Shown here one piece after another: positions 26,999 to 62,595 of a DNA stretch of 64,000 bases; within the stretch, counting starts at the first letter, position 1; the number at the start of each line of letters is the position of its first letter. This DNA is from a virus, in IMG/VR virus record IMGVR_UViG_3300040770_000151. One strand, given 5' to 3'. The notes beneath the pieces were generated by a model. It ran no database searches. It saw only the letters and a list, made by a program, of their open reading frames with translations, and was not told the DNA's origin. A program made the position numbers and the translations under genes.

Positions 26999-27087
26999 CG
27001 TTTTGCAGATAGGCGATGTAAAAGCCTTGTAGGATGTTGAATATTAGTAGTAAATTTGATGGCTTTTATATTGCCTATGTGCTTTTA
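26996..27087 (+). repeat. attC-like hairpin site A1 (core G mutated to T at 27084)
   Basis: gcagataggcgatgtaaaagcc / ggcttttatattgcctatgtgc arms. Confidence 0.7.
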
Positions 27088-27102
27088 TAAGCCGTTAATT
27101 TT

Positions 27103-27175
27103 GGAAACGTAGCAAAGATGGTCTATGCGGAGGACTGAAAATCCTTAGATGTTGGTTCGATACCAACCGTTTCCA
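27103..27175 (+). tRNA. trnF: tRNA-Phe (GAA)
   Basis: Acceptor GGAAACG/CGTTTCC-A, anticodon arm GAGGA-CTGAAAA-TCCTT, T arm GTTGG-TTCGATA-CCAAC; no encoded CCA. Confidence 0.9.
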
Positions 27176-27289
27176 CGAATGCAGTTCGATTCTGCTCGTT
27201 GACCGAGATTATGGTAAAGTCCGATGCGTGGTTCAATTCCACCGTTACGAAAGTAAACTGGGTAAACGGAGGTCTTTTTTAATAGCTTA

Positions 27290-27415
27290 TAACGTCCTGC
27301 CGCTTGGCGATGTTAGCGATAAGTAAGCCAAATATTCGAGTACTCACGAATAAAAACAGGTACAAAACCATTTATTAATTGAGCCTGATGCGCTAATCTT
27401 GCCAAACGGCTGTTA
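27290..27415 (+). repeat. attC-like hairpin site A2 (126 nt)
   Basis: TAAC-gtcct-gccgcttggcgatgttagcg...cgctaatcttgccaaacggc-t-GTTA. Confidence 0.8.
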
Positions 27416-27430
27416 TAACTCGTTTTTCTT

Positions 27431-27652
27431 ATGGAAACATTTACAAGTCTTGAAAACAGATTGCAAGTATTATCTAAATCTTTAAAAAGTTTAAAAAAAA
27501 TTGAAGCAGATAATAAAAAAGCATATGATATTATTTATGAAAAATTAATAAATTCACAAACAGATGTGAGACAAAAAGAGATTGAAATAGAGCCTTTAAA
27601 AAACTCACTTAAAGACTTATATTCTAAAAAATTAGATATTTTAACTCGGTAG
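27431..27652 (+). CDS. Cassette ORF A3 (coiled coil)
   Basis: Bracketed by GTTATAACTC ... GAGTTATAAC. Confidence 0.7.
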   Translation: METFTSLENRLQVLSKSLKSLKKIEADNKKAYDIIYEKLINSQTDVRQKEIEIEPLKNSLKDLYSKKLDILTR

Positions 27653-27665
27653 CCAAAATGAGTTA

Positions 27666-27792
27666 TAACGTTTTGTAGCTTGTTTCAGTGGCGTGCAAGT
27701 AAGCGAGTATTTTCGGTTTAAAAACTATAATAACAGAGAAGCCAAATCATTAAATTAAACACGATACCAGCCATTGCTACAAACTACTGTTA
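27666..27792 (+). repeat. attC-like hairpin site A3 (127 nt)
   Basis: TAAC-gtttt-gtagcttgtttcagtggc...gccattgctacaaactac-t-GTTA. Confidence 0.8.
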
Positions 27793-27825
27793 TGTTTAGT
27801 GTCGGGTTATTAAAACTAAATTATT

Positions 27826-28017
27826 ATGTGTAGTAGATACTGCGAAGATTGTGGATGTGGCAAATCAAATGGAATTTGCACAAATTGTAACGAAGAACTT
27901 TACATTATGGATTATCAATATCCTGAAATGGACGAAGAAATTGATTTTAGCGATGAGTTTGTTGAAAAGGTAAATGAGCAAAGAGAACGTCTGCATAAAA
28001 ATAAATGTAGCCATTAA
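27826..28017 (+). CDS. Cassette ORF A4 (CxxC Zn-ribbon-like)
   Basis: CEDC..C.NC; bracketed by GTTATGTTTAGTG ... CATTAAACATAAC. Confidence 0.7.
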   Translation: MCSRYCEDCGCGKSNGICTNCNEELYIMDYQYPEMDEEIDFSDEFVEKVNEQRERLHKNKCSH

Positions 28018-28020
28018 ACA

Positions 28021-28093
28021 TAACGTTCCGCAGCTACACGATGCCAGCCTATGCGGTTGCGTTGATTCGGCTGGTATTGTGTAACTGCTGTTA
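28021..28093 (+). repeat. attC-like hairpin site A4 (73 nt)
   Basis: TAAC-gttcc-gcagctacacgatgccagcc...ggctggtattgtgtaactgc-t-GTTA. Confidence 0.8.
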
Positions 28094-28289
28094 TGGCTTC
28101 GTTCTTTTTTAAACTAACAAAAAATAACAACTTGTAAAAAAATAATTAATTGTAATACGGGTAAAATTATAAAATGCACAAAAAACGGAGGTAGTTTAGG
28201 TTACTACATTAACTCCGTTTTCTTTAAAAAATATGATATTAATAATTTCATTGAAGTGATACCGAAATCAAAATATCCTTTTTAAAACT

Positions 28290-28318
28290 AAAAACGCTCC
28301 AATTAAGAGCGTTTTTTT
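28290..28318. terminator. Bidirectional terminator between early operon A and lysis genes
   Basis: aaaaacgctc-caattaa-gagcgttttttt. Confidence 0.8.
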
Positions 28319-28464
28319 ATTTTAATACCTAATTCATTCTTTACTTTATTTAATCTCTTAATCCACCTTAAAACACGCCCTACAAGTGTAGTTGGTGGTT
28401 TATCGCTTATTAACTCTGTTGCAACATCTATTATAATGTTTGGGTCAATTTGTTCTTGTTTCAT
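28303..28464 (-). CDS. Small basic amphipathic lysis-associated protein (53 aa; paralog 63065)
   Basis: Manual ORF MKQEQIDPNIIIDVATELISDKPPTTLVGRVLRWIKRLNK...; conserved in both lysis modules. Confidence 0.6.
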   Translation of the reverse strand: MKQEQIDPNIIIDVATELISDKPPTTLVGRVLRWIKRLNKVKNELGIKIKKRS

Positions 28465-28470
28465 ATCTAT

Positions 28471-28935
28471 TTAATTTTTAATTTCAAAATGCATTGCATC
28501 GTATCCCTTTTCTTTACCTAACGAAATAAATCCGTGTTTGTAAAAAATATCTATCATAGCCTTATACTCAGGTTTTGAGAATTGAGCATTTTTCCAAGTT
28601 GTTTTTAATGCATTTTTTTCAGGCGAAAGATCAATTGCAATTCCCCAACTATGTTTACTCGGTTGCGTTCCTCCACGCATAGCACGAAAATTAAAACAAC
28701 CTCCAAATAAGTCAATTCCTAATTCAAATATTTTTTGGTAACCGTAATGTGCTAAAATATCAGTAAAAACACTTGACAATTGATTGTGTATTAATTTGTG
28801 ACATTGCATTTTATTTACTTTTACGTTTTTATCCCAAGACAAACGCATTGGATAAGGTAAGTTTAAAGTAGTCAAGTAATTTGGGTTCTTACTAGGAATG
28901 CCATATTTCGCTATTGCTTGATCGGTTGTTATCAT
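28471..28935 (-). CDS. Endolysin, peptidase M15 family
   Basis: FGGCFNFR...SKHSWGIAID...DAMHFE. Confidence 0.88.
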   Translation of the reverse strand: MITTDQAIAKYGIPSKNPNYLTTLNLPYPMRLSWDKNVKVNKMQCHKLIHNQLSSVFTDILAHYGYQKIFELGIDLFGGCFNFRAMRGGTQPSKHSWGIAIDLSPEKNALKTTWKNAQFSKPEYKAMIDIFYKHGFISLGKEKGYDAMHFEIKN

Positions 28936-28938
28936 AAT

Positions 28939-29256
28939 TTATATTTTTGTTGATTCACTTATTACCATAAACATTAAACTAATTAAAGCGGTTATTAATA
29001 AGCCTGCAATAAATTTACCTGCTCTCATATGTTCTTTTAATAAAATATTTTCATCTTCTATTATTTCAACTTTTGTGTTTAGCTTGTCAAGTAGTTGAAT
29101 AAGTCCTTTATTACCGTTTATATTACTGCCAGCTAATGCTATTTTAACCTCTTGCATAAAATCTTTAACTTCGGTCATATCTTTCTTATATATCCTAAAA
29201 TGATGCTCTAAACGCTCAACATTTAGCTTGATTTCTGTAATGTCTTTTTGTTCCAT
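28939..29256 (-). CDS. Lysis-module protein with C-terminal TM helix (paralog 63680)
   Basis: Coiled coil plus TM; near-identical duplicate. Confidence 0.7.
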   Translation of the reverse strand: MEQKDITEIKLNVERLEHHFRIYKKDMTEVKDFMQEVKIALAGSNINGNKGLIQLLDKLNTKVEIIEDENILLKEHMRAGKFIAGLLITALISLMFMVISESTKI

Positions 29257-29569
29257 CAGTTATAAAAATTTGAGCATATATTGTTAAAAGTATCAATGTT
29301 GAATAAATAAAATAATACGTATCGTTTGTTATATGTTTGTATAATAATTGCAATGACAAAACGCTAATAATACATATAACAAAAATAACTTTTTTTATTG
29401 AATACTTTTGAATATTAAAAGTAAAATGAATAATTGAAAATACAATAAAAGGAATGTCTATTAAATTTATAATTTCAAAGTTGCTTAAATAAAAATCAGT
29501 GTCAACTAAAAAAAATATAAAAACCCACCATAAAAAAATAAAATATGGTAGGTTTAAAATTAATCTCAT
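29216..29569 (-). CDS. Multi-pass membrane protein
   Basis: Several hydrophobic segments. Confidence 0.55.
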   Translation of the reverse strand: MRLILNLPYFIFLWWVFIFFLVDTDFYLSNFEIINLIDIPFIVFSIIHFTFNIQKYSIKKVIFVICIISVLSLQLLYKHITNDTYYFIYSTLILLTIYAQIFITDGTKRHYRNQAKC

Positions 29570-29829
29570 TTCTTTGGTTTTGTTGGGAATGGTTGCCCTA
29601 TTAACTCATTATCTTCTGAACTTGCAAAAGATTGCGCTTTATTTGACGTGAAAAAATTCTTTGTCAAATAAGCAATTGCAGTCACTAATAACACTTTAAT
29701 TTCTGGACTAACATTTAATGAGGGAACGAACGTTTCTTGCAACCAATTAAAAACTGTTGCTAAAATTGCTATTAACAACCCTTTACCCAAATCTAGCCAA
29801 TTAAGGCTTAAAAAACTACTCTGTTTCAT
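29566..29829 (-). CDS. Holin
   Basis: FLSLNWLDLGKGLLIAI...AYLTKNFFT; two TM segments near endolysin. Confidence 0.75.
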   Translation of the reverse strand: MKQSSFLSLNWLDLGKGLLIAILATVFNWLQETFVPSLNVSPEIKVLLVTAIAYLTKNFFTSNKAQSFASSEDNELIGQPFPTKPKK

Positions 29830-29844
29830 ATTATATTTATTTAA

Positions 29845-30381
29845 TTAATTACGTGAAATCCCTTGAATGCTTAATGATGAATATTCTATTGATGTAACCC
29901 CTACTGTTGCAGTGTTTAGTCTAACAAATATTTTAAAACCATTTACTTTTAAAGCGTCACCGATATATAGAGGTAATGTAAAAGGTTTGTTTTTAAAGTT
30001 TGTATTAAATAAAGTTACATCGTAAACATCAGTAAATCCACCTTGATTTTCAAAAGGGAAATTTAACGGTACGCCTGCGCTAATTCCGTTCGGTATTTGT
30101 ATTCTCAATTGCAAAGACGCTCTTGTACTTATAATTGTGCTTAACGTTTCAAACTCAAATAACAAATTGAAGTTATGAGGGTATACATCGTTATAAGTAA
30201 ATAAATTTGTGCCTACATTATAATCAAACATAAATTTACCGCTTATAGGGTCTTTTCCGTAAGTATTCATAGTTTTACCCGATTCCGTGCCATTGTAGAC
30301 CAATTCTTGAAAAGTAGTTGTAAGCACTAAGGGCGTTGTTCTACTTACTATTAAACGAGGGTCTGCGCTAGATTGTGCCAT
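29845..30381 (-). CDS. Putative tail-fibre-associated protein
   Basis: Beta-rich; immediately after tail spike. Confidence 0.45.
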   Translation of the reverse strand: MAQSSADPRLIVSRTTPLVLTTTFQELVYNGTESGKTMNTYGKDPISGKFMFDYNVGTNLFTYNDVYPHNFNLLFEFETLSTIISTRASLQLRIQIPNGISAGVPLNFPFENQGGFTDVYDVTLFNTNFKNKPFTLPLYIGDALKVNGFKIFVRLNTATVGVTSIEYSSLSIQGISRN

Positions 30382-30384
30382 ATT

Positions 30385-32871
30385 TTATAAAATTATATAT
30401 TGTGATAAATTTGCCCCTATTGTTGTTTTTGAGTATTGACCGCTAACAACTAGTGTACTTGCTCCGTCAATATTAACCCCTCCTACGCTTTGAATTAATA
30501 CGCTATTTGCTGAGCTATCCATTTTTTTAACGGTTAATTTATAGCCTTGTAAAGCCGTAAAAGTAGGTAGAGTAACAGTAATATTCCCACTTGTTGTGTT
30601 TACACTTAAAATTAACTCGTTATTGTTTACAAAGTCACCTATTACAACTGTTTTGTTAGCTGTGATTGTTTGATTTGCGTATAAAGTTTGACCTTTAGTA
30701 ACGAAGTGGTTAAAAGCGGTAGCATTTGCCCCTTGCATTGTACCATCAAGATTAACTCTCGCTTTTTCATTGTTATTTACGTCTCTAAATGTAGCGATTA
30801 TACTTCCTGTTCCGTTATTTCTTATGTTTGCTCCAACAACCCCTACAGTAACTATACCGTAATCATTATTTGACTCAAAACTAGCACCAGCCGCAGCACC
30901 TGTCCCAGTGTTAATAGCAGTAAAAGCAGGATTTCCATTATTGGCTAAATTTATTGTTTTTACACCTGTTATAGTTTGAACTCCTGTCAACTTAACATTC
31001 CCACTATCAGCATTTGTTACAAAAGAAGTAGTAGCAATTGTACTACTTAAAACTTTCTCAAAAATTCCTGTACTTGAGTTCCGTGTTAAAAAGTCATAAG
31101 ACCCTGCACTTGTGGTTGGCGTATCTGATAAGGTGATCCCCGCAATTTGCATTTTCTCCCCTCCTAAGAAATCTCCGTACATATTAGATAGATTAGCAAG
31201 CTGAACGGTATACTCACTTATATCCGATCCCTCAACTCTGTTCCCTAATATAGTAGAATAACCTGCCCCGTTACCTCCAACTCCAAAAAATGCAATACCA
31301 TAGTCTCCGCAATTTATAATGATGTTGTTTGAAATCACGTTATACTTACCGTTAGTCGATCTAATTCCAGATCTATTCAATGCCGTATCTCTTACGCTAT
31401 TCCCTATTACATAAACATTGCTGGCGTTTTCTAAATTAATCGCTTCTAAACCACTATTTGACACGGTATTTCCTGATACTAAGCAGGGAGAAGATATAGG
31501 AGTGAATGGTATGCCGTCAACCGTAGGATCTACAGTTATACCTATTAATGTAGAATTATGCACCGTATTGCCTAACACTTTAGTGTTTTGATTTTGAGTT
31601 TTAGAAGGGTCTCCACCGCCTATCTGTATACCGTTAGTTCCGTTGTTTTTAAAAGTACTGTTTTCAATAGAGCAATTCAAGGAATATGTTACGCTGTAAC
31701 CACTGCTTAACGTGTTATTAGCTTGGCTGTTTATAACTGATATTTCGCCCGCATCGGTAAAATAGAAGCCCAAATCTGAACCCTCAGAAACACAACCGTC
31801 TAAAGTAATGTTTCTAACGTGTTTAATGTGAAAATTGTTTACGTCGCAATTATAGACTTTACAATTAGTAAGCTTACTATTGACATCTGGCGCATTATTG
31901 TTAAAAGGACTCCCCCCTTGACCACTTAGAAAAAATCCAAACTGCCACCCGTTAATAATAGTAACGTCCTCAGCAATAAAATTAGTCCAAGAAGGAGGAT
32001 TCATATATATACCATTGCCTAATATCTGACTTGCTGGATTAGTGGTATTGGCTTTATTCAAATCAATTGTAACCCCTTTAATAACACACCCATTTGTAGC
32101 TACTAATACACCGTTGAAATTTACGGTAGCGGAATTTTTTATTTTAATTGTAGCACCATAGCCTAACAGTGTTAAACCTGTTGTATTAATAGCCCCAGAA
32201 ACAAGATATATTTTTTTAGGCGTTAATTGAACTATTTCCCCAATAGAGGCGCTCATTGTTAATATCAATGCAGCCGTATCATCTGTTGCGTTATCCCCTT
32301 TAGCACCGAACCATTCTGGGCGTATGTGTAAGAAGTCTCTCTTAAAAAACTCACCGCCTAATTGAAAAAAAATAATTCCGTCAACCGTTGGTGTTCCCGT
32401 TACTTTTGATAAAGTAATTTCTTCACCCGTGTATTGGTCTAAGATGCCGTACAAAACATCCCCTTTTCTTTGAGCTAAAGAAAGGGATTCGTTTGATTTA
32501 ATCCATGCAAAATTTATTGTAGTCCACGTACCAGCACTACGACCAAACACCCCCGCTGTAGTTACATCTTCAACAAAATCTAAATTGTTATCAAATTGAG
32601 ATAATAAAGTAGGTTTGTTTTTTATAAAAGCAGGGTTTAAAGGATCGTTTATTGCGAAATCACTTTGACTTGACACGCTAGGGTCGATACTGTCTAACTT
32701 AGCTTTGTCTACAGCTGAAAAATTAACGTCCGTTAAACTTTTACCTGTTACTTTATCAACCTTATTTGCGTATAATTCGTCAAAATTATCGTCTGATTTA
32801 ACAAAAGCTTGTCTTAATGGGTCTCCCAATCCATCATTTGCAAAGCTATAATTTATTTTCTTTTGTGCCAT
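30385..32871 (-). CDS. Tail spike/fibre with parallel beta-helix (pectate-lyase-like depolymerase)
   Basis: DGLGDPLRQAF anchor, PEWFGAKGD..TDDTAA, Asn/Gly-rich PbH1-type repeats. Confidence 0.8.
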   Translation of the reverse strand: MAQKKINYSFANDGLGDPLRQAFVKSDDNFDELYANKVDKVTGKSLTDVNFSAVDKAKLDSIDPSVSSQSDFAINDPLNPAFIKNKPTLLSQFDNNLDFVEDVTTAGVFGRSAGTWTTINFAWIKSNESLSLAQRKGDVLYGILDQYTGEEITLSKVTGTPTVDGIIFFQLGGEFFKRDFLHIRPEWFGAKGDNATDDTAALILTMSASIGEIVQLTPKKIYLVSGAINTTGLTLLGYGATIKIKNSATVNFNGVLVATNGCVIKGVTIDLNKANTTNPASQILGNGIYMNPPSWTNFIAEDVTIINGWQFGFFLSGQGGSPFNNNAPDVNSKLTNCKVYNCDVNNFHIKHVRNITLDGCVSEGSDLGFYFTDAGEISVINSQANNTLSSGYSVTYSLNCSIENSTFKNNGTNGIQIGGGDPSKTQNQNTKVLGNTVHNSTLIGITVDPTVDGIPFTPISSPCLVSGNTVSNSGLEAINLENASNVYVIGNSVRDTALNRSGIRSTNGKYNVISNNIIINCGDYGIAFFGVGGNGAGYSTILGNRVEGSDISEYTVQLANLSNMYGDFLGGEKMQIAGITLSDTPTTSAGSYDFLTRNSSTGIFEKVLSSTIATTSFVTNADSGNVKLTGVQTITGVKTINLANNGNPAFTAINTGTGAAAGASFESNNDYGIVTVGVVGANIRNNGTGSIIATFRDVNNNEKARVNLDGTMQGANATAFNHFVTKGQTLYANQTITANKTVVIGDFVNNNELILSVNTTSGNITVTLPTFTALQGYKLTVKKMDSSANSVLIQSVGGVNIDGASTLVVSGQYSKTTIGANLSQYIIL

Positions 32872-33336
32872 CTAGTAGAAATCATTAAAATTAGTGGTTT
32901 CTTCGTCTTTCTTTTCGTAATCCCATTCTGGAATGGTTGTATTTCCCATAAATTTACGAAAATTATCTTCAATAGTTACGGCTAAATTCTTGTATTGATC
33001 TGCTAATTGATAAGTTTTTTGAGTAGGCTGACCGTTTGCCACTGATAAAATAGTATTCCCAATGTTAGACTGCTTTACCTCATTGAATAAAGTAAAATAA
33101 TAAGCAGTATAAAATACGTGCATATCAATAATGTACTTATCATAAATTGTCTTGTAAATACCTTGTAAATTAGCAAAATCATTAGTTATTTTATCAACTA
33201 AAGACTGACCTAAAACCCTAGTAACATCTGAAATTTGAGCGTAGTATATTTTCTGTAAAATAAGTTCGTTATCCGTTGCGCTACTTATTGAAGTTGTTGC
33301 TTTAAATTGTTCCGCTGTTATAAATAATTTTGTCAT
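32872..33336 (-). CDS. Head-tail adaptor-like protein
   Basis: Follows portal; AQISDV..VLG..L pattern. Confidence 0.55.
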   Translation of the reverse strand: MTKLFITAEQFKATTSISSATDNELILQKIYYAQISDVTRVLGQSLVDKITNDFANLQGIYKTIYDKYIIDMHVFYTAYYFTLFNEVKQSNIGNTILSVANGQPTQKTYQLADQYKNLAVTIEDNFRKFMGNTTIPEWDYEKKDEETTNFNDFY

Positions 33337-36779: not shown

Positions 36780-37712
36780 TTACTTTGTTGCTCTAAATTT
36801 CTCTAAAGGTGTCATTTTACTATAATCTTTTTTCTCTACAGGAACATCAGCCAATCTTTGACTTGACATTTTAACTGCTTTGTAACTGTCAAAAGCCTTA
36901 GTAACTTCTTCAAGTTGTGCGCTCATTAAAGTAGCATCGTTTTCATTTTTAGCTTTTTCAGCTTCTAAATCATCGATTTTCTTTTGCAACTCTACAATAG
37001 TAGCCTGTGCAATTTCTAATTCGCTTGGTTCTGCTGGCATTTCTTCCGCCATTTCTTCAGGTTCTTCTTTAACCTCTTCTACAGCTTCGGAAGTTTCGTA
37101 TACAGGCTTTTCATCATCGCTAATGGCACTCATCAGGATAGCCTTGAAATCTTCCAATTTTTCTAAGATTGTTTTTTTCATATTAATATTACTAAATTTA
37201 GAGATAGGACTATCCGTATCTTCTTCCGTATCTAAGTGACCTTCAATTGAAAGTCCTTGCAATAATTGATTTTGTATTTTGTTTAAAACATCTTCGCTTT
37301 CACACTTGTACCCCATTATCCAAGTGCCTTGTTTTTGCAATGGCATTCCTAAAGCCTTGCTTTTATCATTTCCAGGGTCTGTGACTATCCAACTTTCAAC
37401 AGGATAAACTCCCTCGGTATCTGTGTCTTGGTGTTCTATATTTGTATTAGCGTTACCATTTTGTTTAAAATAGTTGTTTGCTAGTTGCTCTACTGTTTCT
37501 GAATCATAATAAACTAAATATTTTTCGCCTGTGTTGGGGTCTATCCTTTGTATCTTAACATCTGGAATCATTACAGGCGAATAAAACACGCCTTTAATTT
37601 CTTGCGCTGCCATAAGCACCAAGTCGCCCTCTCCTACTGCTGGATTTTTAACTATAGAAACTTTAAAGACTCCTTTTTTATCAGGATTGTATTTATATTT
37701 TAGTATTTTCAT
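36780..37712 (-). CDS. Prohead protease (XkdF-like) fused to scaffold
   Basis: VMIPD, NIEH, VESWIV, GTW, GLSIEG; acidic coiled-coil C-terminus. Confidence 0.8.
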   Translation of the reverse strand: MKILKYKYNPDKKGVFKVSIVKNPAVGEGDLVLMAAQEIKGVFYSPVMIPDVKIQRIDPNTGEKYLVYYDSETVEQLANNYFKQNGNANTNIEHQDTDTEGVYPVESWIVTDPGNDKSKALGMPLQKQGTWIMGYKCESEDVLNKIQNQLLQGLSIEGHLDTEEDTDSPISKFSNINMKKTILEKLEDFKAILMSAISDDEKPVYETSEAVEEVKEEPEEMAEEMPAEPSELEIAQATIVELQKKIDDLEAEKAKNENDATLMSAQLEEVTKAFDSYKAVKMSSQRLADVPVEKKDYSKMTPLEKFRATK

Positions 37713-54650: not shown

Positions 54651-54668
54651 AATTATTTTTTTTATGAA

Positions 54669-55434: not shown

Positions 55435-55649
55435 AAATAATTCATTTTAGATTGTAAAGTTATTTCTTGAATTTTTCCAATAAAGTATAAATGTTGGTGT
55501 AATAAATCTTCCTGGTACTTGTCTAAATATAAAGCGTAATTGTTAATTCGCTTTACTTTTGTAGGTATGATTTTAATGCTTTTTATACATCTAGAAATTT
55601 CGTTATACATCATATCGCATTCTATAGCAATTTGCATTAAAGACTTCAT
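55431..55649 (-). CDS. Hypothetical protein
   Basis: ORF track. Confidence 0.55.
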   Translation of the reverse strand: MKSLMQIAIECDMMYNEISRCIKSIKIIPTKVKRINNYALYLDKYQEDLLHQHLYFIGKIQEITLQSKMNYL

Positions 55650-55752
55650 AACGCTAACATTTTAGCTATTTTAATAATAAATTGTTCTATTTTGTTTCTC
55701 ATAATTTTTTATTTAAACCGTCCTAAATTTTAGGACGGTTGGTTTTTTGTTT

Positions 55753-56085
55753 TTAAAAAGGAATATCAGATTCTTCTTCTTCTGAAACAGGTGTGGCATT
55801 AAATACCGTTTCTTTTTGATCCCATATAGTAGTAACTCCTTCGCCTATAAAAATAGTCTCTGCTTTCGCTTCTCTTTCTTCTTTAGTTTGTATTACGCTT
55901 GCAAAATGTGATTTCTGTAATTTATAACCGCTACCCTCGTGTATTATTTTAGGCTCTTTTACTTCTACAAGTTCAAATCTGACTTCTTGGACTTTCATTT
56001 TAATCCCTTCTTTTGAATCGAACTCTCTTTTTGTTACTAGATTACGTAATTTAGTAGCGTCTAATGTGATTGTTATTTTTGACAT
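55753..56085 (-). CDS. Probable SSB
   Basis: Acidic EESDIPF tail. Confidence 0.6.
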   Translation of the reverse strand: MSKITITLDATKLRNLVTKREFDSKEGIKMKVQEVRFELVEVKEPKIIHEGSGYKLQKSHFASVIQTKEEREAKAETIFIGEGVTTIWDQKETVFNATPVSEEEESDIPF

Positions 56086-56087
56086 AT

Positions 56088-56738
56088 TTAAAATTTTAAT
56101 TTGTTTAATTCAATTGTTATTTGTTCTTTTAATAATTCCCCTTCTTTTTTAGCTATTTCAACCCACTCATTGACAGTTTTTATAATTGGTTTGGCTTTTG
56201 TTCCTAAATTAATTAAGCTTTCTCTAGTAAGCTCTTTTACAAAAATAGGTTTATAAATGTTTTCGGGTCTGTAGCTACAAAAATAATGTTTTTGTAATTT
56301 AGGGTTTATCGTAAAATAGTGTAAACATTGGTGTATATTGTCGTTTGGAATATCATTTGCTCGAATAGTAGATAAATGTTTTTTTTTTGCAAAACATTTT
56401 ATTTCTGCTGATATTGTTTCATCTTCACTTATTCCATCTGGAGAAATGCCTAAGTATTCGTTTTCTTCGCATTGCAACCAACCAACCTCTAAAAGTTCAA
56501 TGCCTAAATATGCGCTTAATGCTTTTCTTGCTTCTGGCTCTAATTCTGAACCTCTTACCATATCATAAGATTGATAATTTTCTTGTAAGTCAAATTCTTC
56601 GCATAGTTCGCTTAAAACATCTTCTAATAAAGTATCTGATTTTACAAATAAACCTTTTGATAAAGTACCACCTATTTTCCCATATCTTACTTCGTGCCAT
56701 TCCTCAGAATGTTGTTCAATATCATTTCTAATTATCAT
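56088..56738 (-). CDS. YqaJ/lambda-exonuclease family nuclease
   Basis: QHSEEW..VR.GKIG, RG.ELEP.AR, GISPDG, EIKC. Confidence 0.88.
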   Translation of the reverse strand: MIIRNDIEQHSEEWHEVRYGKIGGTLSKGLFVKSDTLLEDVLSELCEEFDLQENYQSYDMVRGSELEPEARKALSAYLGIELLEVGWLQCEENEYLGISPDGISEDETISAEIKCFAKKKHLSTIRANDIPNDNIHQCLHYFTINPKLQKHYFCSYRPENIYKPIFVKELTRESLINLGTKAKPIIKTVNEWVEIAKKEGELLKEQITIELNKLKF

Positions 56739-57268
56739 TTTAAAGTAGTTTTAAGTTTTTCTTTTAAAGCAATTACAGTTGGTAAATGCTGTTCGGAAGG
56801 AGTTAATATTTTCCAAGCTATTTGTAAAGCTTCTAAAGAAGTACACATGTTTAAAGCAGAAATTGCAGTAACATCTGAAATAACTTTTTTAACAACAGGC
56901 TTAACTTTTATACCTCCTGTTACTTTACCCATCATTTTAACGCTAGGATCAAAAAACAAATCTATTTTAATACCTTTCCATTTAGGTAATTTTCTACTTT
57001 CTGCTGAACTGCAATTTAATTCTTGCTTTACAATTTCATTTATTATTTTTCTATTTCCACTATTAGCAACCATATCTTTAACAGGCTCTATAAATGAAAT
57101 AAAATAACCATCTGTTTTATTTCCAGAAACATCTACGCCTCTATCATAATAGGCTTCCTTAATTGTTAAAATACAATTTCCTTTTTCCTCCACAATTGCA
57201 TCTACATCAATCCCCGCTAAATGCGTTGACTTTCTGTATTTCATACTATCAATATCTAACTCTCTCAT
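56735..57268 (-). CDS. Hypothetical protein, possible ssDNA-annealing partner
   Basis: Adjacent to exonuclease; same slot as the RecT-like gene in unit A. Confidence 0.4.
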   Translation of the reverse strand: MRELDIDSMKYRKSTHLAGIDVDAIVEEKGNCILTIKEAYYDRGVDVSGNKTDGYFISFIEPVKDMVANSGNRKIINEIVKQELNCSSAESRKLPKWKGIKIDLFFDPSVKMMGKVTGGIKVKPVVKKVISDVTAISALNMCTSLEALQIAWKILTPSEQHLPTVIALKEKLKTTLK

Positions 57269-57274
57269 AATTTT

Positions 57275-57523
57275 CTATTTTAATTTTTCTATTAATCTTC
57301 TAACTTTTCCAGCTAAACCACTATCAACTGATTCTAAACAATAAAGTATATGGTTTGCTTCTTCTATAATATTTCTTTGCATTTCGTTAAATACTTCAAC
57401 ATAACCGTTGTCGTATGCTTCTGTTAAATTTATAATAGTTTCTACTATTTCAGCATCTACTTCAATCTCGTTTGCAGGATGCATACTGTTGTTCGTTCCT
57501 AAATAATTGTCGTCGTAATTCAT
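57275..57523 (-). CDS. First leftward early gene (paralog 25107)
   Basis: N-terminal similarity. Confidence 0.7.
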   Translation of the reverse strand: MNYDDNYLGTNNSMHPANEIEVDAEIVETIINLTEAYDNGYVEVFNEMQRNIIEEANHILYCLESVDSGLAGKVRRLIEKLK

Positions 57524-57549
57524 AATAATTTTTATTTAAATGATTAATA

Positions 57550-57645
57550 TTTTTTACAAAGATACATTTGTTTTTGACAAATCAATGTTAAAATTATGTT
57601 AAAAAGGAAAAGTAATGTATAAAAGCGCTATCTTTGACAAAAAAT
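57550..57645. promoter_or_regulatory. Divergent promoter pair, unit B
   Basis: TATCTTTG at 57557-57564 (minus) and 57629-57636 (plus). Confidence 0.75.
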
Positions 57646-57658
57646 AAATCACAACAAT

Positions 57659-57952
57659 ATGAACAAAGCATTTACAAAATCAAAAGAAATAGTATTAGAT
57701 GAAAATTACAAAATTATTCCTGATACTGACAATGGTGTTGTTTTAGTTTTTAAAACAAGTAGAGTTAATAAAAAAGATGAAACAGTACCGCACGAGGAAT
57801 TGTTTTATTACCCTAGAATTTCACAAGCACTAAAGCATTATGCAGATAAAACAATTAATAATTCTGAGAGTTTAGATGATTGTATTTATAAATCAGAATC
57901 AGTTTATAATTTGATAAAAAGATTAGACCAACAATTTAAACAATTTAATTAG
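57659..57952 (+). CDS. First rightward early gene (paralog 25496)
   Basis: Similarity. Confidence 0.75.
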   Translation: MNKAFTKSKEIVLDENYKIIPDTDNGVVLVFKTSRVNKKDETVPHEELFYYPRISQALKHYADKTINNSESLDDCIYKSESVYNLIKRLDQQFKQFN

Positions 57953-57957
57953 TAAAT

Positions 57958-58137
57958 ATGAAAACCAAGAAACACAAAATAGTAAATGGTAAATGGCAAA
58001 TTAAAAACATTTACGACGCTTTACAAGCTAGTTTATTTGATATTTATATAAATACCCATCGTGAATTAGAAACGCCTGCATTAAGGTCTAAAATAACGAA
58101 AGAATACAACTATAAATTTAATTTTACAAACAGATGA
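57958..58137 (+). CDS. Hypothetical protein (59 aa; paralog 25898)
   Basis: Manual ORF MKTKKHKIVNGKWQIKNIYDALQAS. Confidence 0.65.
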   Translation: MKTKKHKIVNGKWQIKNIYDALQASLFDIYINTHRELETPALRSKITKEYNYKFNFTNR

Positions 58138-58421
58138 AAAATTTAAAAATAAAAGAAATTAATTTTTTAAAAGGAGAAGAAAGAGGTTTGACAAAAAATT
58201 ACCCTTCAAACGGTTTTTTTATTTCAAGGTTCGAAAACGGAACTAGCGACTTTATTCTTGTTGACAAGAATGCTGAGCGTGTTATTTTTCTTTGTCCAGA
58301 AGAAATATTTAATTCAATTTCTGAATACGAAGAAGAAACAATAATTTCAGAACCTAATACCGATACCTATAAAGGTGATTTTATTCTTGAATTTGCTAGA
58401 ATTTTATTAAACAGAAAATAA
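58134..58421 (+). CDS. Hypothetical protein
   Basis: Occupies the slot of 26095 in unit A but is unrelated. Confidence 0.6.
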   Translation: MKNLKIKEINFLKGEERGLTKNYPSNGFFISRFENGTSDFILVDKNAERVIFLCPEEIFNSISEYEEETIISEPNTDTYKGDFILEFARILLNRK

Positions 58422-58435
58422 CTAAAAATAAAACA

Positions 58436-58684
58436 ATGATAACAGAACAACTAATACCACTTTTGAAGAATAAAAGAGAAAATTTAAAAGGAACAACACT
58501 ACCAACGGTTAAACTTTGGGAATCTGGTACACGTTCGCCATTATTAAAAAACGTTGACCAAATATGTAAAGCAAACGATTTAAAAGTTTTGGTTTATGAT
58601 GGTAACTTAGATACTTTGATAAATTTTGCGCATAAAGTCGCTAAAGAACAAGGTATGAAAATGATTCTTAATTTTGAGGCTTAA
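58436..58684 (+). CDS. XRE-like HTH regulator (paralog 26481)
   Basis: Near-identical; stop codon lies in TAAC of site B1. Confidence 0.7.
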   Translation: MITEQLIPLLKNKRENLKGTTLPTVKLWESGTRSPLLKNVDQICKANDLKVLVYDGNLDTLINFAHKVAKEQGMKMILNFEA

Positions 58685-58786
58685 CGTCCTGCAGCTACAC
58701 GATGCTAGTCTAAGTGCTTAGTAGATTCGGCTGCTGAATTATGTTATGTGTTATAAGTAGTACGGGTAATTAAAAAAAATGTAATT

Positions 58787-58963
58787 ATGAAAGAAAAATT
58801 TAAAAGTTATTTAGAAAGATTAAAGTCTTTTAATAAAGCGGAAAATTATAATTATACAGATGACGATTTTGATAAGTATAAAGATTATATTAGAGATTGT
58901 TGGCTAAGTAATTTAAGCGTACATAAATGCCTTGAATTTATGTATTTTGAAACGGAATCGTAG
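58787..58963 (+). CDS. Cassette ORF B1 (58 aa)
   Basis: Manual ORF MKEKFKSYLERLK...FMYFETES. Confidence 0.65.
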   Translation: MKEKFKSYLERLKSFNKAENYNYTDDDFDKYKDYIRDCWLSNLSVHKCLEFMYFETES

Positions 58964-59137
58964 TATTACTTATAATGGATCAGTGATATGAGAGGATTTT
59001 CGGAACGGAAATCACGAATATTTACTGCCAAAACTAATATTACCCAGTACAAAACAATAAATCAATAATCACAAATGCCGAAAATCGCTCATATCACTTG
59101 TTACTGGCTGTGCTTTTTCGGCTCAAAAAATTAAAAA

Positions 59138-59560
59138 ATGGATATTAAAACTATCAAAATTAAAAAAGTGGATACTGAAAAATTAATTGAATTTTTAGCA
59201 ATCCCATTGAATGAGAATGAAAAATTATCAATAGATGTTTTTGGAGTTTTTGAAAACAAATTCGGAATCGATACTGATTGTTGTTTCTGGGAAATAAATC
59301 AAGCGTTCTTTAATGAAAAAATACAAGATGTAATTGATATTGAATGTAGAATTAAGAAGTATAACGATAAAGGAGGTTATTCAATTAGAATGGATAAAGC
59401 TGATTTTGTAAAAACAATTTCTTTAGAAGATTATTTGAAATTATCTGAAGAAGTTATGCTTGTAGATTTTATAAGATTGGATTATAATCCGAGAATTACA
59501 GGCAATCAAAAATTATTGATGAAACATATTAGACAAAGTTATGCCGTTCCAACCGCATAG
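59138..59560 (+). CDS. Cassette ORF B2
   Basis: ORF track; between sites B2 and B3. Confidence 0.7.
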   Translation: MDIKTIKIKKVDTEKLIEFLAIPLNENEKLSIDVFGVFENKFGIDTDCCFWEINQAFFNEKIQDVIDIECRIKKYNDKGGYSIRMDKADFVKTISLEDYLKLSEEVMLVDFIRLDYNPRITGNQKLLMKHIRQSYAVPTA

Positions 59561-59686
59561 CCAGTAACGCCTACCGCTACAGCACGCCGCCTAAGTGGTT
59601 GCGTAGGTTCGGCGGTGGTTTGTAACGGTTGTTATGCCTTCGCCTTTTTATTTACAACATATTATTAACTAATAAATTATAAAAAA

Positions 59687-60163
59687 ATGAACAATTATTT
59701 ATTTAAAAAAATAGAACAAGCTCACGGAGCTTATTTTGAAAACTTAACTTTTATTGCAAATGAAGTTTGTCGTGAAAGACAATCAGAATCGTTTGAAGAA
59801 TTTACTGAATTAGAACCTGCTGAAATAGCAAAAGTTTTAGGATGGAATGACAAAAAAGAAACCCTATCTCTAATTGAAAGCGAAATAAAAGACAAAAGTT
59901 TATCTGGATTATTATTGAGATACGATATGACTGGATTTTTAGCACAATGTATGATGCCTGAATGTTCAAATTTTAGATTTGAAGAAGGAAAAGAAAGACC
60001 TTGCTCGTGGAGTGTTCACGGTGGAATTTGCAGAATATTTTGGATTTATGCTGAATCAATAGGCGAGCTAGTTGAAAAGTTAGAGCAAAAAGCAGAGAAT
60101 TTATTTTTAGAAGCCGTAAATAAATCAAGGTCAGTTGTAGATTCCAACCAAGCTGACGCATAA
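59687..60163 (+). CDS. Cassette ORF B3
   Basis: Stop overlaps TAAC of B4. Confidence 0.7.
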   Translation: MNNYLFKKIEQAHGAYFENLTFIANEVCRERQSESFEEFTELEPAEIAKVLGWNDKKETLSLIESEIKDKSLSGLLLRYDMTGFLAQCMMPECSNFRFEEGKERPCSWSVHGGICRIFWIYAESIGELVEKLEQKAENLFLEAVNKSRSVVDSNQADA

Positions 60164-60315
60164 CGGTCGAGTGCTTGGCGAAGAAGCGGAAAAGTACATG
60201 CTATTTTTCGATTAAGCCTAAATTTTAAAGACACAAAATATATTATAAATTAATAACCGAACCCGCTTTTTTGCCAAACACTTGTTATGGTTAGTGCGGT
60301 TCATAAAAACAAAAA

Positions 60316-60795
60316 GTGATGAAACAATTAAATCAAATTATCAAAACATTAAGAGAAGAAACGGCTTTTTCATTTACCGAAAAGAAATTAGAAATACTTA
60401 GAAGTCAAAAAGATTATTCAGAAATGATGAAACAATGTTATAGCGGGAAAGATAATACTACTATTGAAGAATGTGAAGAAAACGCTATTAGAACGTTTGT
60501 TTCTGAATATCAAAAAATGTGTGAGATTTATTCAGGATGGTTGAAAAATGGAAAGGTTTTTATTTTAGATAAAAGAGACCATTTTATTCTTGCACTATAC
60601 AAAGTTGATGATATTGCACATAAGGCAATTGCACAATACAATCCATTGAATGTAGATTGCATTGAGCAATCAATTTCAAATAAACATTTTTTCGAGCAAT
60701 TAAATATCCGTTTTGATATTTCTACAAATGAAGAATTATTAATTAAAGAATGTGATTTGTTAATCAAAAATTCAATTGTTTACCCAGCACCGTAG
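60316..60795 (+). CDS. Cassette ORF B4
   Basis: Between sites B4 and B5. Confidence 0.7.
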   Translation: MMKQLNQIIKTLREETAFSFTEKKLEILRSQKDYSEMMKQCYSGKDNTTIEECEENAIRTFVSEYQKMCEIYSGWLKNGKVFILDKRDHFILALYKVDDIAHKAIAQYNPLNVDCIEQSISNKHFFEQLNIRFDISTNEELLIKECDLLIKNSIVYPAP

Positions 60796-61066
60796 CATTA
60801 ACCATAACGGAATGTGGCTTTATTTCAGTTGCAAAATTCGTAACCGATAATTTTCGGCTAATAAAAAACGACTTTCGAAAGATAATTTTGATTTTATCAG
60901 ATATTTTGCAATTGAATAAAACCACTGTTATCGCTAGTTGCAAGTAGTTCAGAAAAATACTTTAGAAAATAATTTAAATATTTTATAAAAACACTTGTTT
61001 ATTATAAAATAAGTTATATATTTGCTAAAGAAATAACAACGAAGTTATTTTGTAATTTTTATTATT

Positions 61067-61312
61067 ATGAATAATGTTTATACAAATAGTCGTCCAACTG
61101 AAAGTTTTTGCAAACTAAAAGCTACTTGTGGATTACACGGTAATTTAGACATTCACGGAATGGAATGGAGCGAAAGAGTTATTTTAAAAGTAGTTGCTTT
61201 TGATAGAACTAACGGAGTTTTAATCGTTGAAAATGATAACGGATTAAAATGGAATACAGATTTGAAGAAAATGCAATTCTGTTTAGAGAATGGCAATTCA
61301 GTTCCAAACTAA
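61067..61312 (+). CDS. Cassette B5 ORF 1
   Basis: Behind internal TATATTTG promoter 61017-61024. Confidence 0.65.
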   Translation: MNNVYTNSRPTESFCKLKATCGLHGNLDIHGMEWSERVILKVVAFDRTNGVLIVENDNGLKWNTDLKKMQFCLENGNSVPN

Positions 61313-61514
61313 AATGCCATTCATCCTAAAAAATAAAGAAACCGAGCAATATAGATTGTTCGGTTCTTTACCTATCCTTTGCCGAAGCATTGGATTTGAC
61401 GAAAAAAAAGAGAAAAATTTGCTTTACACTTTCTCTCAAAAAAAAGAAATAAAGTTTGAAAATAACGAGTTTCTAATTGTAAAAGTCTTTTTAGAACGTG
61501 GTGGCAGCAATTAG
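61290..61514 (+). CDS. Cassette B5 ORF 2, possible small DNA-binding protein
   Basis: Overlaps ORF 1; FGSLPILC motif resembles the C-terminus of 4570-4836. Confidence 0.55.
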   Translation: MAIQFQTKMPFILKNKETEQYRLFGSLPILCRSIGFDEKKEKNLLYTFSQKKEIKFENNEFLIVKVFLERGGSN

Positions 61515-61590
61515 CGATAACGTTTTGCGGCTTTGTCGTCGTTGTGGCGTTTGAACACAAATATTAACAAAGAAAACAAATCATTAAATT

Positions 61591-61788
61591 ATGCCAAATA
61601 CTTCCAAAAATGCCCAAGTGCCACAATGCGACAAAACCGCTGTTAGCAGTAGTTATTCGTTAGATGAAGTTAGAAATATTGTTCTTGAAATGCGTAATGA
61701 AGCGATATCTGGTTTAAGAGGTGAGAGGCGTTGGGACATGCAAAAACGACTTGGTAAAATAAGAGATAAATGGAAGTTGGGGTATTAA
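61591..61788 (+). CDS. Cassette ORF B6 (starts inside site B6)
   Basis: GTT crossover at 61642 is codon 18 (Val). Confidence 0.6.
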   Translation: MPNTSKNAQVPQCDKTAVSSSYSLDEVRNIVLEMRNEAISGLRGERRWDMQKRLGKIRDKWKLGY

Positions 61789-61902
61789 TTACTGCTAACG
61801 TTCCCGCGATAGGGGCTGTTTGCCTATGCGGAAACCTACTTTCGGCAAATAGACCTTATCGTGTGTTATCAATATTATGAATTATTAAAACAAAAATAAA
61901 TT

Positions 61903-62163
61903 ATGGAAACTAAAAAACCAAACAATCCAAGTGCATTTCCTGTAATAGCTACAGAACAATCGTTTTTTAATCAAAGCCCATTAATGCCTGAATCAGGAAT
62001 GACTTTAAGAGACCATTTTGCTGGATTAGCAATGCAGGGATTAATGTCAATGGAAGAAAAAGGAGAGTATCAAACAATTGATGATGCTTGGAGGAAAATA
62101 GCTGAATACTCGTATCAAATGGCTAACGCTATGCTAAAAGTTCGTGAAGAAACGGAATCGTAA
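61903..62163 (+). CDS. Cassette ORF B7, widespread phage AFP...GMTLRD family
   Basis: SAFP...GMTLRDHFAGLAMQG...YQMANAMLK.RE. Confidence 0.75.
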   Translation: METKKPNNPSAFPVIATEQSFFNQSPLMPESGMTLRDHFAGLAMQGLMSMEEKGEYQTIDDAWRKIAEYSYQMANAMLKVREETES

Positions 62164-62333
62164 TATTATTGATAACGGTTCGCTAGTAGGCGATGGTTAG
62201 GGTCAGGATTCTAATTGTGGCGAATTCTCCTTAATTAAACCAAGTACAAAAAACTAATTAAATTAATCACGATGCCCAACTATTGCTTACTAGCTGTTAG
62301 CATTTGTGCGGGTAACTAAAACTAAATATTATT

Positions 62334-62546
62334 ATGAAAGCAATAGGAAATTATTTGCCGTGGGAATCTGGATATTATGAAAGTTCAGGTTCATATAAAA
62401 AAAGCAATGGAGAATTAATATTTTGTTATACTTATTATTTCTCTGGAAAAGCGGAACAAATTGAAACAAGACACCCTATAGATTGTGGTAAATTAAATAA
62501 AGAGATTGAAGAAAAATGTAATTCAAAAACGAAAATACAGCATTGA
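62334..62546 (+). CDS. Cassette ORF B8
   Basis: Between B8 and truncated B9. Confidence 0.65.
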   Translation: MKAIGNYLPWESGYYESSGSYKKSNGELIFCYTYYFSGKAEQIETRHPIDCGKLNKEIEEKCNSKTKIQH

Positions 62547-62595
62547 TGCTAACTCATCCATACAACTAACTAACCTATTCAATACCCTGTAAACA

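Follow-up and report, generated by a model that had tools for sequence, protein, structure and literature searches.

How genes in two parts of a viral sequence came to lie in rows between recurring hairpins, and whether they move, are the questions raised by the window analysed here, the 64,000 nt of IMG/VR record IMGVR_UViG_3300040770_000151. The explanation that we consider probable is that the + strand rows at approximately 26730-28290 (array 1) and 58682-62553 (array 2) would be mobile, integron-like cassette arrays of two lytic-type phages with Flavobacterium-like hosts, with folded hairpin sites, exchange at the AAC upstream of each hairpin and an Xer-like recombinase from outside the window.

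The window contains 13 hairpin sites, all on the coding (+) strand. They have the form AAC-G...T-GTT and fall into a short class of approximately 70 nt and a long class of approximately 126 nt. RNAalifold found 17 pairs, 15 of them with compensatory changes, and this covariation shows that the structures are genuine. R1, a covariance model trained on 19 sites, matched one strand only at each locus. One reading of such sites is that hairpins and paired ends act in polycistronic mRNA, in processing, stability or translational insulation, with the DNA pattern as a by-product. Consistent with this, every window site is on the coding strand, + strand folds are more stable than - strand folds at 11/12 sites, start codons lie inside long sites, and the conserved G.T pairs sit on the sense strand, which is the mRNA strand, where they are G.U-compatible. 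However, the sites matched no Rfam family, sites in chromosomal arrays are antisense to the ORFs in 14/17 cassettes, and one cassette of viral contig L005 has a reversed ORF. An mRNA role would also leave the sharp core breakpoints and the recombinase association described below unexplained, and we consider it very unlikely.

Array 1 begins directly after the stop codon of a conserved 82-aa gene with a degenerate site (26730-26828) that has lost the 5' half of its stem, within which ORF 26783-26998 begins; in its 3' portion it is similar to long sites found in L006 and L035. The first cassette, a0 (26825-26999), has left arm GTTAGTGGAATTGC and right arm GCATTGCCAATAAC, which match at 7/11 of positions 5-15 by hand count, and is followed by site a0 (26996-27087; 30.1 bits with R1), the 3' core of which is mutated to TTTA. 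The cassette at 27084-27293 carries a tRNA-Phe(GAA) gene (27103-27176, ARAGORN) between arms TTTATAAGC and GCTTATAAC. Long-class sites a1 (27290-27415; 126 nt, 42.2 bits) and a2 (27666-27792; 33.1 bits) flank the cassette at 27412-27669 (ORF 27431-27652), whose ends match at 10/10 positions (arms 10/11). The cassette at 27789-28024 (ORF 27826-28017; ends 12/13, arms 9/11) precedes short-class site a3 (28021-28093; 73 nt, 92.9 bits), the body of which is 100% identical to sites in viral contigs L008, L009 and L059, where it lies between different arms. The last cassette (28090-28290) is truncated, with a left arm, GTTATGGCTTCGTTC, that also heads full cassettes in L005 and L035 and without a right arm, and a terminator-like hairpin follows it.

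The first site of array 2, b0 (58682-58753; 33.6 bits), overlaps the stop codon of the conserved 82-aa gene, is degenerate in its 3' half and has the weakest fold (-6.7 kcal/mol). It is followed by the cassette at 58750-58976 (ORF 58787-58963, right core TAAT; ends 12/14), long-class site b1 (58973-59103), which has a mutated 5' core and was not called by R1 at default filters, a cassette at 59100-59568 (140-aa ORF 59138-59560; ends 13/14) and short-class site b2 (59565-59634; 80 bits). The 158-aa ORF (59687-60163) of the cassette at 59631-60164, the arms of which match at only 7/11 positions, belongs to a family that is also found as an ordinary non-cassette phage gene. Long-class site b3 (60161-60287), whose 3' part is at very high contig depth in other metagenomes, precedes the cassette at 60284-60808 (159-aa ORF 60316-60795; ends 13/14), and long-class site b4 (60805-60930; 28.8 bits) precedes one with two ORFs (60927-61521; ends 14/15), of which ORF 61067-61312 is swapped for other sequence in other samples and the second is at 61290-61514. 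ORF 61591-61788 begins within long-class site b5 (61518-61645; 31.8 bits). The 158 nt cassette that follows (61642-61799; ends 13/14) has arms GTTAGCAGTAGTT and AATTACTGCTAAC, which elsewhere bracket genes unrelated to this one, at least three in number (in L005/L007, L009 and L042). Short-class site b6 (61796-61868; 74.8 bits), a cassette at 61865-62176 (86-aa ORF 61903-62163; ends 10/10) and long-class site b7 (62173-62299) lead to the last cassette (62296-62553; 70-aa ORF 62334-62546), which ends in TAAC and is not followed by a hairpin. The conserved flank at 62554-62595, also present in L005, occupies the position of the primary (attI-like) site; in the window it is followed by a 94-aa ORF and not by a recombinase gene.

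The preliminary description had listed eight left-end/right-end pairs, and all were found where it had placed them, with the match counts quoted above. Three cassettes that it had not listed also fit the pattern, namely that at 62296/62553 (11/14), that at 59631/60164, with a weaker end match, and the tRNA cassette if its left core is set at 27084 (TTTATAAGC, which carries a G-to-T change). Over positions 5-15, which exclude the constant GTTA/TAAC, cognate ends of the 11 window cassettes match at a mean of 8.1/11 positions, compared with 3.7/11 for non-cognate ends, and the observed cognate sum was reached by 0/200,000 permutations. As had been claimed, a right end pairs with the start of its own cassette and not with the far flank of its own hairpin, the two flanks of the same hairpin matching at only 3.7/11. 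In other phage contigs, 37 pairs of neighbouring sites formed an independent set, which gave 7.4 for cognate and 3.2 for non-cognate ends (0/100,000 permutations), and a chromosomal Flavobacterium array follows the same rule, with 10/11 matches in most cassettes. The complementarity of cassette ends is real.

The recurrent G.T mismatch at position 11 was also confirmed, with G on the left and T on the right in 8/11 window cassettes. Among the 25 clear cassettes of the independent set, this position is never Watson-Crick paired (0/25); T is invariant in the right arm, and the base in the left arm is G in 19 cassettes, C in five and T in one. With DNA energy parameters, the arms contribute -1.9 kcal/mol to the hairpin as arrayed, and cognate arms joined as in a circle contribute -8.6 to -8.8 kcal/mol. 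As the complementary arms bracket the same gene, the outer stem of a site would be complete only with the ends of that gene joined, as in an excised circle, and a folded site of this kind is the best explanation for the matched ends. The sequence of a right arm joined to a left arm is an 11+6+11 palindrome around AACGTT. This palindrome, and the Xer-like nature of the recombinase, would also suit double-stranded Xer-type sites, pdif-like or of an invertase, with the inverted arms as protein-binding half-sites and no folding; pdif modules with inverted flanking sites are known. However, the arms vary between cassettes and match within them, which points to pairing and not to recognition of a fixed sequence, and the hairpin stems covary. 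Frequent inversion is unlikely because all cassettes of one array share their orientation. We regard duplex sites as highly improbable, and return to the folded site.

Homology between related arrays breaks at the cores. One identical 65-nt body recurs beside five or more different right arms and also beside different left arms, and single cassettes in river, wastewater and virome assemblies match with ends exactly at TAAC(G), at 60165, 61799 and 62553. Hairpin body and downstream cassette are linked in 13-19% of cases (same body and same left arm in 18% of pairs), far below the approximately 100% expected of a strict unit, and the same right arm is followed by the same downstream body in 3/103 pairs (3%), against a baseline of 1-2%. 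The linkage of body to left arm is above baseline, but arms, hairpin bodies and genes are more independent than in classical cassettes. Identical arms also surround genes that are unrelated, and homology there is lost 13 nt from the core, which a simple cassette model does not predict.

This independence could reflect Red-like homologous recombination by the phage at conserved linkers, with no site-specific enzyme and with arms and hairpins kept for another reason. Such shuffling has been proposed for the promoter-stem-loop elements of T4-type phages. The phage does encode a YqaJ/RecE-like exonuclease, adjoining an early promoter, and different genes between identical arms, chimeric bodies whose 5' and 3' parts are not always of one type, and hairpin bodies at 5-10 times gene depth in the source sample are all in its favour. 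However, Red-like exchange would keep an arm with its half-body, and here the same arms adjoin unrelated bodies, with the break in the shared 4-5 nt core. It also leaves unexplained the complementary gene ends, the fixed mismatch at position 11, the association of all 82 sites with a recombinase gene and the exact TAAC boundary. We consider it unlikely as an account of the arrays, and site-specific exchange remains our preferred reading.

Arrays start with an often degenerate hairpin and end with a hairpin-less cassette: in array 2, L005, approximately 40 recombinase-bearing loci and one chromosome, the first hairpin comes directly after a conserved gene and the last cassette has no hairpin. 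Array polarity, the linkage statistics and the chromosomal arrays suggest that the crossover is most likely at the AAC before each hairpin on the + strand, which corresponds to G/TT on the complementary strand. The cassette would then consist of a gene and its upstream hairpin, not the downstream one. The preliminary description, in which the hairpin is completed only on circularization through G/TT, was right in the logic of joined ends; G/TT is, however, better placed on the complementary strand, at the upstream AAC. As on the bottom strand of classical attC sites, AAC is followed by G (PMC2727003). We place the exchange inside the GTT/AAC triplet because the fourth base covaries in a 57-nt mini-cassette (GTTG...CAAC).

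The classical arrangement, in which an integron integrase would cross over at G/TT of the GTTA after each + strand hairpin and move a gene with its downstream hairpin, draws on the resemblance of an ORF followed by AAC...GTT to an ORF with its attC and on array 1, which happens to end with a hairpin; cognate arms fit it equally well. Against it are the hairpin-first, hairpin-less-last loci listed above, the 3/103 figure, and the chromosomal arrays, in which ORFs lie on the other strand, antisense to the sites as in classical cassettes. Of 301 Flavobacterium genomes, one has an integron integrase that scores above the curated cut-off; none was found in the phage records. We judge this arrangement distinctly unlikely.

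No recombinase was found in the window, nor among five related viral records, of which two are estimated to be complete. In L092, the array stops 48 nt before a gene for a 267-aa Xer-like tyrosine recombinase that is internal to a prophage, with a separate 407-aa integrase 29 kb away. In 80 viral loci found with the L092 protein, 82/82 sites precede the recombinase gene and share its orientation, and none is downstream. In approximately 40 of these loci, the last stretch before the recombinase reads variable arm-TAAC|TACTATATGTA...ATG, so that in recombinase-bearing relatives variable cassettes meet the conserved flank exactly after TAAC. This association and this boundary are direct observations; the adjacency could partly mirror the conserved gene order of one phage lineage. 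Sites were present in 51/151 sampled Flavobacterium genomes, and in Flavobacterium chromosomes recombinases of 41-44% identity adjoin the arrays, with the gene in the opposite orientation to that in phages. The 267-aa phage enzyme and the 346-aa chromosomal enzyme scored 138 and 203 bits with TIGR02249 (cut-off 265), and the IntI-specific segment is unmatched in the Xer-like recombinase. From these comparisons, the enzyme that serves these cassettes is probably a small recombinase of Xer-like type and not a classical integron integrase.

Taken together, the preferred explanation would run as follows. The recombination sites would be hairpins folded from a single strand, and the 10-15 bases outside the AAC/GTT core would belong to the cassettes, such that the arm after GTT and the arm before the next AAC bracket one gene and an arrayed hairpin carries mismatched outer arms. 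Exchange would occur within the AAC/GTT triplet, mainly at the AAC before the hairpin, on the gene-sense strand, which would behave like the bottom strand of a classical attC. The moving unit would be C-hairpin-GTTA-left arm-gene-right arm-TAA, and new units would be added at the last TAAC, the far end of the array. The predicted enzyme is the small Xer-like tyrosine recombinase whose gene adjoins that end in temperate relatives and in Flavobacterium chromosomes; the window phages, like integrase-less attC clusters (CALINs), would rely on one from the host or a resident prophage. No circular molecule or excision junction was present among the sequences aligned to the window, which were assembled contigs only. 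We infer the circles, whose footprint had been seen in the matched ends, as well as the single-strand folding, the strand cut and the identity of this recombinase as the enzyme.

Classical integrons, above all the sedentary chromosomal ones, share much with these arrays, and the preliminary comparison with integron cassettes stands for the kind of mechanism but not for the enzyme family or the site architecture. In both, mostly single-gene units lie between imperfect hairpin sites with an AAC...GTT core, as also in CALINs, out-of-core bases belong to the neighbouring cassette, and the cassette start complements the bases before its own AAC. Such end complementarity is standard textbook knowledge for the inverse core and the 7-bp core. 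Further likenesses are that one array end carries a conserved primary site together with a tyrosine recombinase gene, that chromosomal arrays have near-identical sites, that arrays without a recombinase exist, as in CALINs, and that G follows AAC on the recombined strand. The enzyme here, however, is Xer-like and does not reach the integron-integrase cut-off; the sites carry a 5-nt bulge on one side, where classical sites have an unpaired spacer on both, and 1x1 mismatches take the place of extrahelical bases; cognate pairing extends over 14-15 nt (27 nt in Polaribacter phage P12002L) with an obligatory non-Watson-Crick position 11; and arms, bodies and genes are semi-independent. As the phage genes are on the bottom-like strand, each follows its site, opposite to classical integron cassettes.

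In the literature searched, we found no description of this cassette system except for two sites called in P12002L. Qi et al. (2023; PMC9892861) reported CALINs in phage genomes, including that of P12002L, where only these two sites were called and were read as divergent, matched arms were not described, and attC1 was the one tested site that IntI1 did not recombine. P12002L_attC1 (TGCTAACGG...CCATTGTTAGGC) is a member of the window site family, and the only member that Qi et al. tested. P12002L cassettes, which include methyltransferases, have cognate arms, and its array-end flank is repeated; its two called sites compare with 13 in the two window arrays.

As in CTX-type phage integration, an Xer-family enzyme would act here on a hairpin of one strand, with a single strand exchange finished by replication. 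At dif, Xer recombination on folded single-stranded DNA is completed in that way, but it brings a whole phage genome into the chromosome, without the cassette arrays or matched arms seen in the window. The pdif modules of Acinetobacter plasmids, for which the mechanism of movement is unproven, also have genes bracketed by inverted Xer-type sites that neighbours share. In pdif, the arms are invariant sequences on duplex DNA to which XerC and XerD bind, whereas arms in the window vary and are matched within each cassette, with structured hairpins between units.

The two ends of a cassette match each other, and not the ends of their neighbours. Thirteen hairpin sites of the form TAAC-G...T-GTTA, in size classes of approximately 70 and 126 nt, were located in the window; the bases after GTT (left arm) and those before the next AAC (right arm) flank one gene and are here called cognate. 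The preliminary description stated that a cassette's left end is complementary to its own right end, and the eight pairs on which it relied were recovered with the same coordinates and match counts. Three more window cassettes obey the arm rule, more weakly. With the constant GTTA and TAAC left out of the matching and 11 positions scored, cognate ends match at 8.1/11 positions versus 3.7/11 for non-cognate ends, and the observed total was reached in none of 200,000 permutations. The two flanks of a single hairpin match at only 3.7/11 positions, in line with the claim that the ends are not complementary across their own hairpin. For 37 pairs of neighbouring sites from outside the window, the values were 7.4/11 for cognate ends versus 3.2 (0/100,000 permutations). 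Using DNA parameters, the arms contribute -1.9 kcal/mol in the array context and about -8.7 kcal/mol when joined as a cognate pair.

A G.T mismatch at the 11th position from the core, previously noted in six cassettes, is seen in 8/11 window cassettes. Position 11 is Watson-Crick in 0/25 clear external cassettes, where the right arm always carries T and the left arm G, C or T. Reading this position as the trace of a stop codon, TAG within the left arm and TAA on the opposite strand, fits many arms but fails for some, such as CTG/CTA, and the mismatch itself therefore seems to be the conserved feature. Arms and hairpin together set a full recombination site of about 100-160 nt that includes this fixed mismatch. 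The matched ends are the clearest sequence-level sign that the cassettes moved as discrete mobile units, as had been proposed, rather than being ordinary operon genes. A mobile hairpin of the REP/RAYT type was considered and dropped, as it cannot account for arms that are cognate across a gene; the IS200/IS605 Y1 transposase is absent from five related viral records. Circularisation of the cassettes, with the hairpin completed by crossover in the circle, would be the best explanation of the matched ends, and this part of the preliminary description holds. However, the boundary it assumed is most likely one hairpin off, and the probable recombinase resembles Xer proteins and scores below the threshold for integron integrases.

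A search with the short-class loop motif showed that ten low-GC viral contigs carry sites of this family. When 19 short sites were aligned, the fold contained 17 pairs, with compensatory changes at 15 of them, and a covariance model made from these sites detects both short and long sites, always on one strand per locus. Judged by sequence, the hairpins are real, widespread structures. They match no family in Rfam. The sites have cores, a stem and a variable terminal loop, with G next after AAC; the spacer is one-sided (5 nt versus 1 nt), and the consensus includes 1x1 mismatches and lacks single-base bulges. Wobble pairs do not decide strand choice, since either strand has one at a position that is mismatched in the other. 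A 57-nt 'empty' mini-cassette at 3999-4054 of the reverse-oriented locus L008 contains nothing but a pair of 16-nt arms and a loop of 25 nt, and its GTTG and CAAC cores covary. As the fourth base thus belongs to the arms, exchange would occur within GTT/AAC; the same fourth-base covariation is found in a chromosome.

Long sites contain AT-rich loops that match the -7 promoter box of Bacteroidota; one such match is TAATTTTG in site b4 of the second array (60870-60895), and promoters for the following gene may lie inside them. ORFs that begin inside a long site and read over the GTTA core into the cassette were seen at 61591-61788 and 26783-26998 in the window and at 3821-4045 in locus L005. Comparison of 58400-63100 with four metagenomes, sequencing run X1 among them, showed unitigs breaking at sites and hairpin bodies at 5-10 times gene depth; this comparison used assembled contigs, which cannot reveal circles or rare junctions. 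In assemblies from wastewater and viromes, the 3' part of site b3 (60127-60283) reaches an extremely high abundance.

Four lines agree in placing the putative crossover at the AAC that precedes each hairpin on the window's + strand. The arrays begin with a hairpin after a conserved gene and end with a hairpin-less cassette. Among 144 sites, cross-locus pairs with the same right arm also share the downstream body in 3% of cases, and pairs with the same body also share the following left arm in 18%, with a baseline of 1-2%. G follows AAC, as on the recombined strand of classical attC (PMC2727003). Finally, in a chromosomal array the ORFs are on the strand opposite to the sites in 14/17 cassettes, which is the classical order of ORF then site. 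The phage cassettes would therefore be reversed, with the gene coming after its own site, and the preliminary description's assignment of each cassette to its downstream hairpin would have to move by one hairpin. Both arrays open with a degenerate site (26730-26828 and 58682-58753), as expected if this site is the oldest.

Linkage of body to cassette is weak, and some bodies are chimeric. The arms GTTAGCAGTAGTT and AATTACTGCTAAC bracket four or more unrelated genes, and homology between the loci ends 13 nt away from the core. The arm pair GCAGTAGTT and AATTACTGC surrounds at least four unrelated genes at 61642-61799 in the window and at 4167-4470 in L005, 5690-5993 in L007, 2345-2601 in L009 and 1129-1372 in L042. 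In 4/5 of these loci the left arm is accompanied by a stretch of approximately 50 nt from the long site upstream of it. Removal of the extrahelical bases from a classical attC relaxed strand choice and moved the crossover to the other core (PMC2727003); by analogy, use of both strands of sites that lack extrahelical bases could be the cause of the semi-independent assortment of bodies and cassettes. A gene-level test of co-travel by nucleotide BLAST yielded a single usable pair. A 158-aa cassette gene (59687-60163 in the window, 6001-6483 in L092 and 3001-3456 in L096) has homologues in about 50 clusters. In some phages the homologue is a tightly packed ordinary gene with no adjoining hairpins, which is no help for mapping cassette boundaries. 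The cassette and non-cassette states could show how cassettes arise.

The window sequence, from an ice metagenome, is approximately 30% G+C and contains two phage genomes in tandem, head to tail, at 1-28300 and 28300-63100. Each has a long minus-strand block with structural, lysis and replication genes. Both also contain a divergent promoter region and a small number of conserved early genes on the + strand, followed by a row of small + strand genes with hairpins between them. The pair encodes a capsid and a portal protein as well as large terminases of two different kinds. The two genomes have early genes and a terminator-like hairpin (near 28290 and 63065) in common, and their virion modules and terminases are unrelated. 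Their head-to-tail layout could be genuine or could result from assembly across the shared sequence. Megablast and tblastn against a phage collection found no match for the window among isolated phages, and the window shows no enrichment of the canonical GTTRRRY motif. The cassette at 27084-27293 holds no ORF and carries tRNA-Phe(GAA) at 27103-27176 on the + strand; its left core is TTTA for GTTA, and two T-arm-like fragments follow the tRNA.

No tyrosine recombinase is encoded in the window, nor in five related viral records that include genomes of 43 and 160 kb estimated to be complete, and no phage protein common to all site-bearing records was found. A search for homologues of one cassette gene brought up L092, a contig of a Flavobacterium metagenome-assembled genome, where the array ends in ...GTCTTGCTACTAAC and the gene for a 267-aa Xer-like recombinase starts 48 nt past this end. 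This gene lies between phage genes, and an integrase of normal size is encoded 29 kb away, so the Xer-like protein is probably not the lysogeny integrase. The viral contigs searched contain 247 relatives of the 267-aa protein. At the 80 loci fetched, 82/82 model-detected sites lie upstream of the recombinase gene and are co-oriented with it. In about 40 of them, a variable right arm ends in TAAC, and a conserved flank, TACTATATGTA..., continues from there without a gap into the recombinase start codon. The phage flank starts immediately behind the final TAAC and 52 nt upstream of the start codon. A pattern scan of viral contigs for the array-end flank returned no match.

The best model for the array-associated recombinase is NF040815 (XerA-type), with 184.8 bits for the phage protein and 216.4 for the chromosomal one against a cut-off of 220; the XerC and XerD models give about 155-180 bits, with cut-offs near 330. 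By these scores, the enzyme would be close to the Xer family, yet under every curated cut-off. Its best PDB relatives are XerA proteins, and IntI4 is matched in two pieces.

The covariance model detected sites, of the long class, in 51/151 Flavobacterium genomes sampled. This refutes a restriction of the sites to phages, which had been considered when a loop-motif scan of 185,579 species genomes returned only two small contigs. Recombinase homologues with 41-44% identity adjoin the arrays in three of the five genomes checked. Chromosomal array L189 includes 18 nearly identical 126-nt sites with cognate arms matching at 10/11 positions and the same position-11 rule; it terminates in CCCATAAC followed directly by TAATATATAGG, beside a gene for a 346-aa recombinase. 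The chromosomal recombinase has an additional N-terminal segment of approximately 73 aa relative to the viral protein. The gene is directed away from the array-end flank in phages (loci L098-L177) and towards it in chromosomes (Flavobacterium contigs G028:C12, G036:C1 and G091:C1).

We lean somewhat towards a joint reading in which the chromosomes and phages of Flavobacterium, and probably of the wider Bacteroidota, would share an integron-like gene exchange with an Xer-like recombinase that is without the integron-integrase insertion. The folded sites would mark strand and register by fixed mismatches (position 11 of the outer arm, C.A and G.T in the stem) in place of extrahelical bases, and the accessory early genes of the phages would be reverse-oriented cassettes, tradable among phages and with host arrays via a host or prophage recombinase. 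The literature searched does not describe an integron-like exchange system of Flavobacterium and its phages as such. Sites occur in a third of the sampled Flavobacterium genomes, an integron integrase in almost none, and phages of 35 to 160 kb that are unrelated to one another carry the same sites. Should the Xer-like enzyme prove to be the recombinase, gene capture of the integron type would be wider and mechanistically more varied than current detection tools report. Such a system would let phages swap accessory genes between unrelated genomes; cassettes in the relatives include methyltransferases.

Compared with integrons, the recombinase differs from the integron integrases. It scores 137.6 bits (phage) and 202.8 bits (chromosome) with TIGR02249, for which the cut-off is 265, and the model matches in two stretches that skip about positions 180-254, leaving the IntI-specific segment unmatched. 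An integron integrase above the curated cut-off was found in 1/301 Flavobacterium genomes sampled, and IntegronFinder 2.0 reported almost nothing for Bacteroidetes (PMC9024848). Classical attC sites have AAC/GTT cores (R boxes), an inner L stem, a two-sided unpaired central spacer and 2-3 extrahelical bases on one arm, whereas the spacer of the phage sites is one-sided. Clusters of attC have been reported in phages by Qi et al. (PMC9892861), and HattCI called a site of the window's family in Polaribacter phage P12002L. This site, P12002L_attC1, is placed in the window's family by sequence comparison, and recombination by IntI1 failed for it alone (PMC9892861). IntI1 did recombine the array-end sequence of P12002L, 'attC2', at G/TTAGGC (PMC9892861). 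In P12002L the same sequence of approximately 65 nt, corresponding to 'attC2', follows the last TAAC of two separate arrays (29166-29247 and 37200-37304). Two cassettes of this phage, that of gp53 (annotation: Mom-like DNA modification protein) and that of the DNA methyltransferase gp54, have cognate arms 27 nt long that leave a small bubble at positions 9-12. With 13 sites in two arrays and no integrase nearby, the window corresponds to a CALIN (a cluster of at least two attC-type sites that lacks an integrase) if its sites count as attC-type. The integron platform, a recombinase gene with an attI-like site at the entry end, is present in the relatives and not in the window; its layout is that of the conserved flank running from the last TAAC into the recombinase start. 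The rule for the ends of integron cassettes, that the bases after GTT complement those before the cassette's own AAC, also applies here, with pairing longer than in the classical case.
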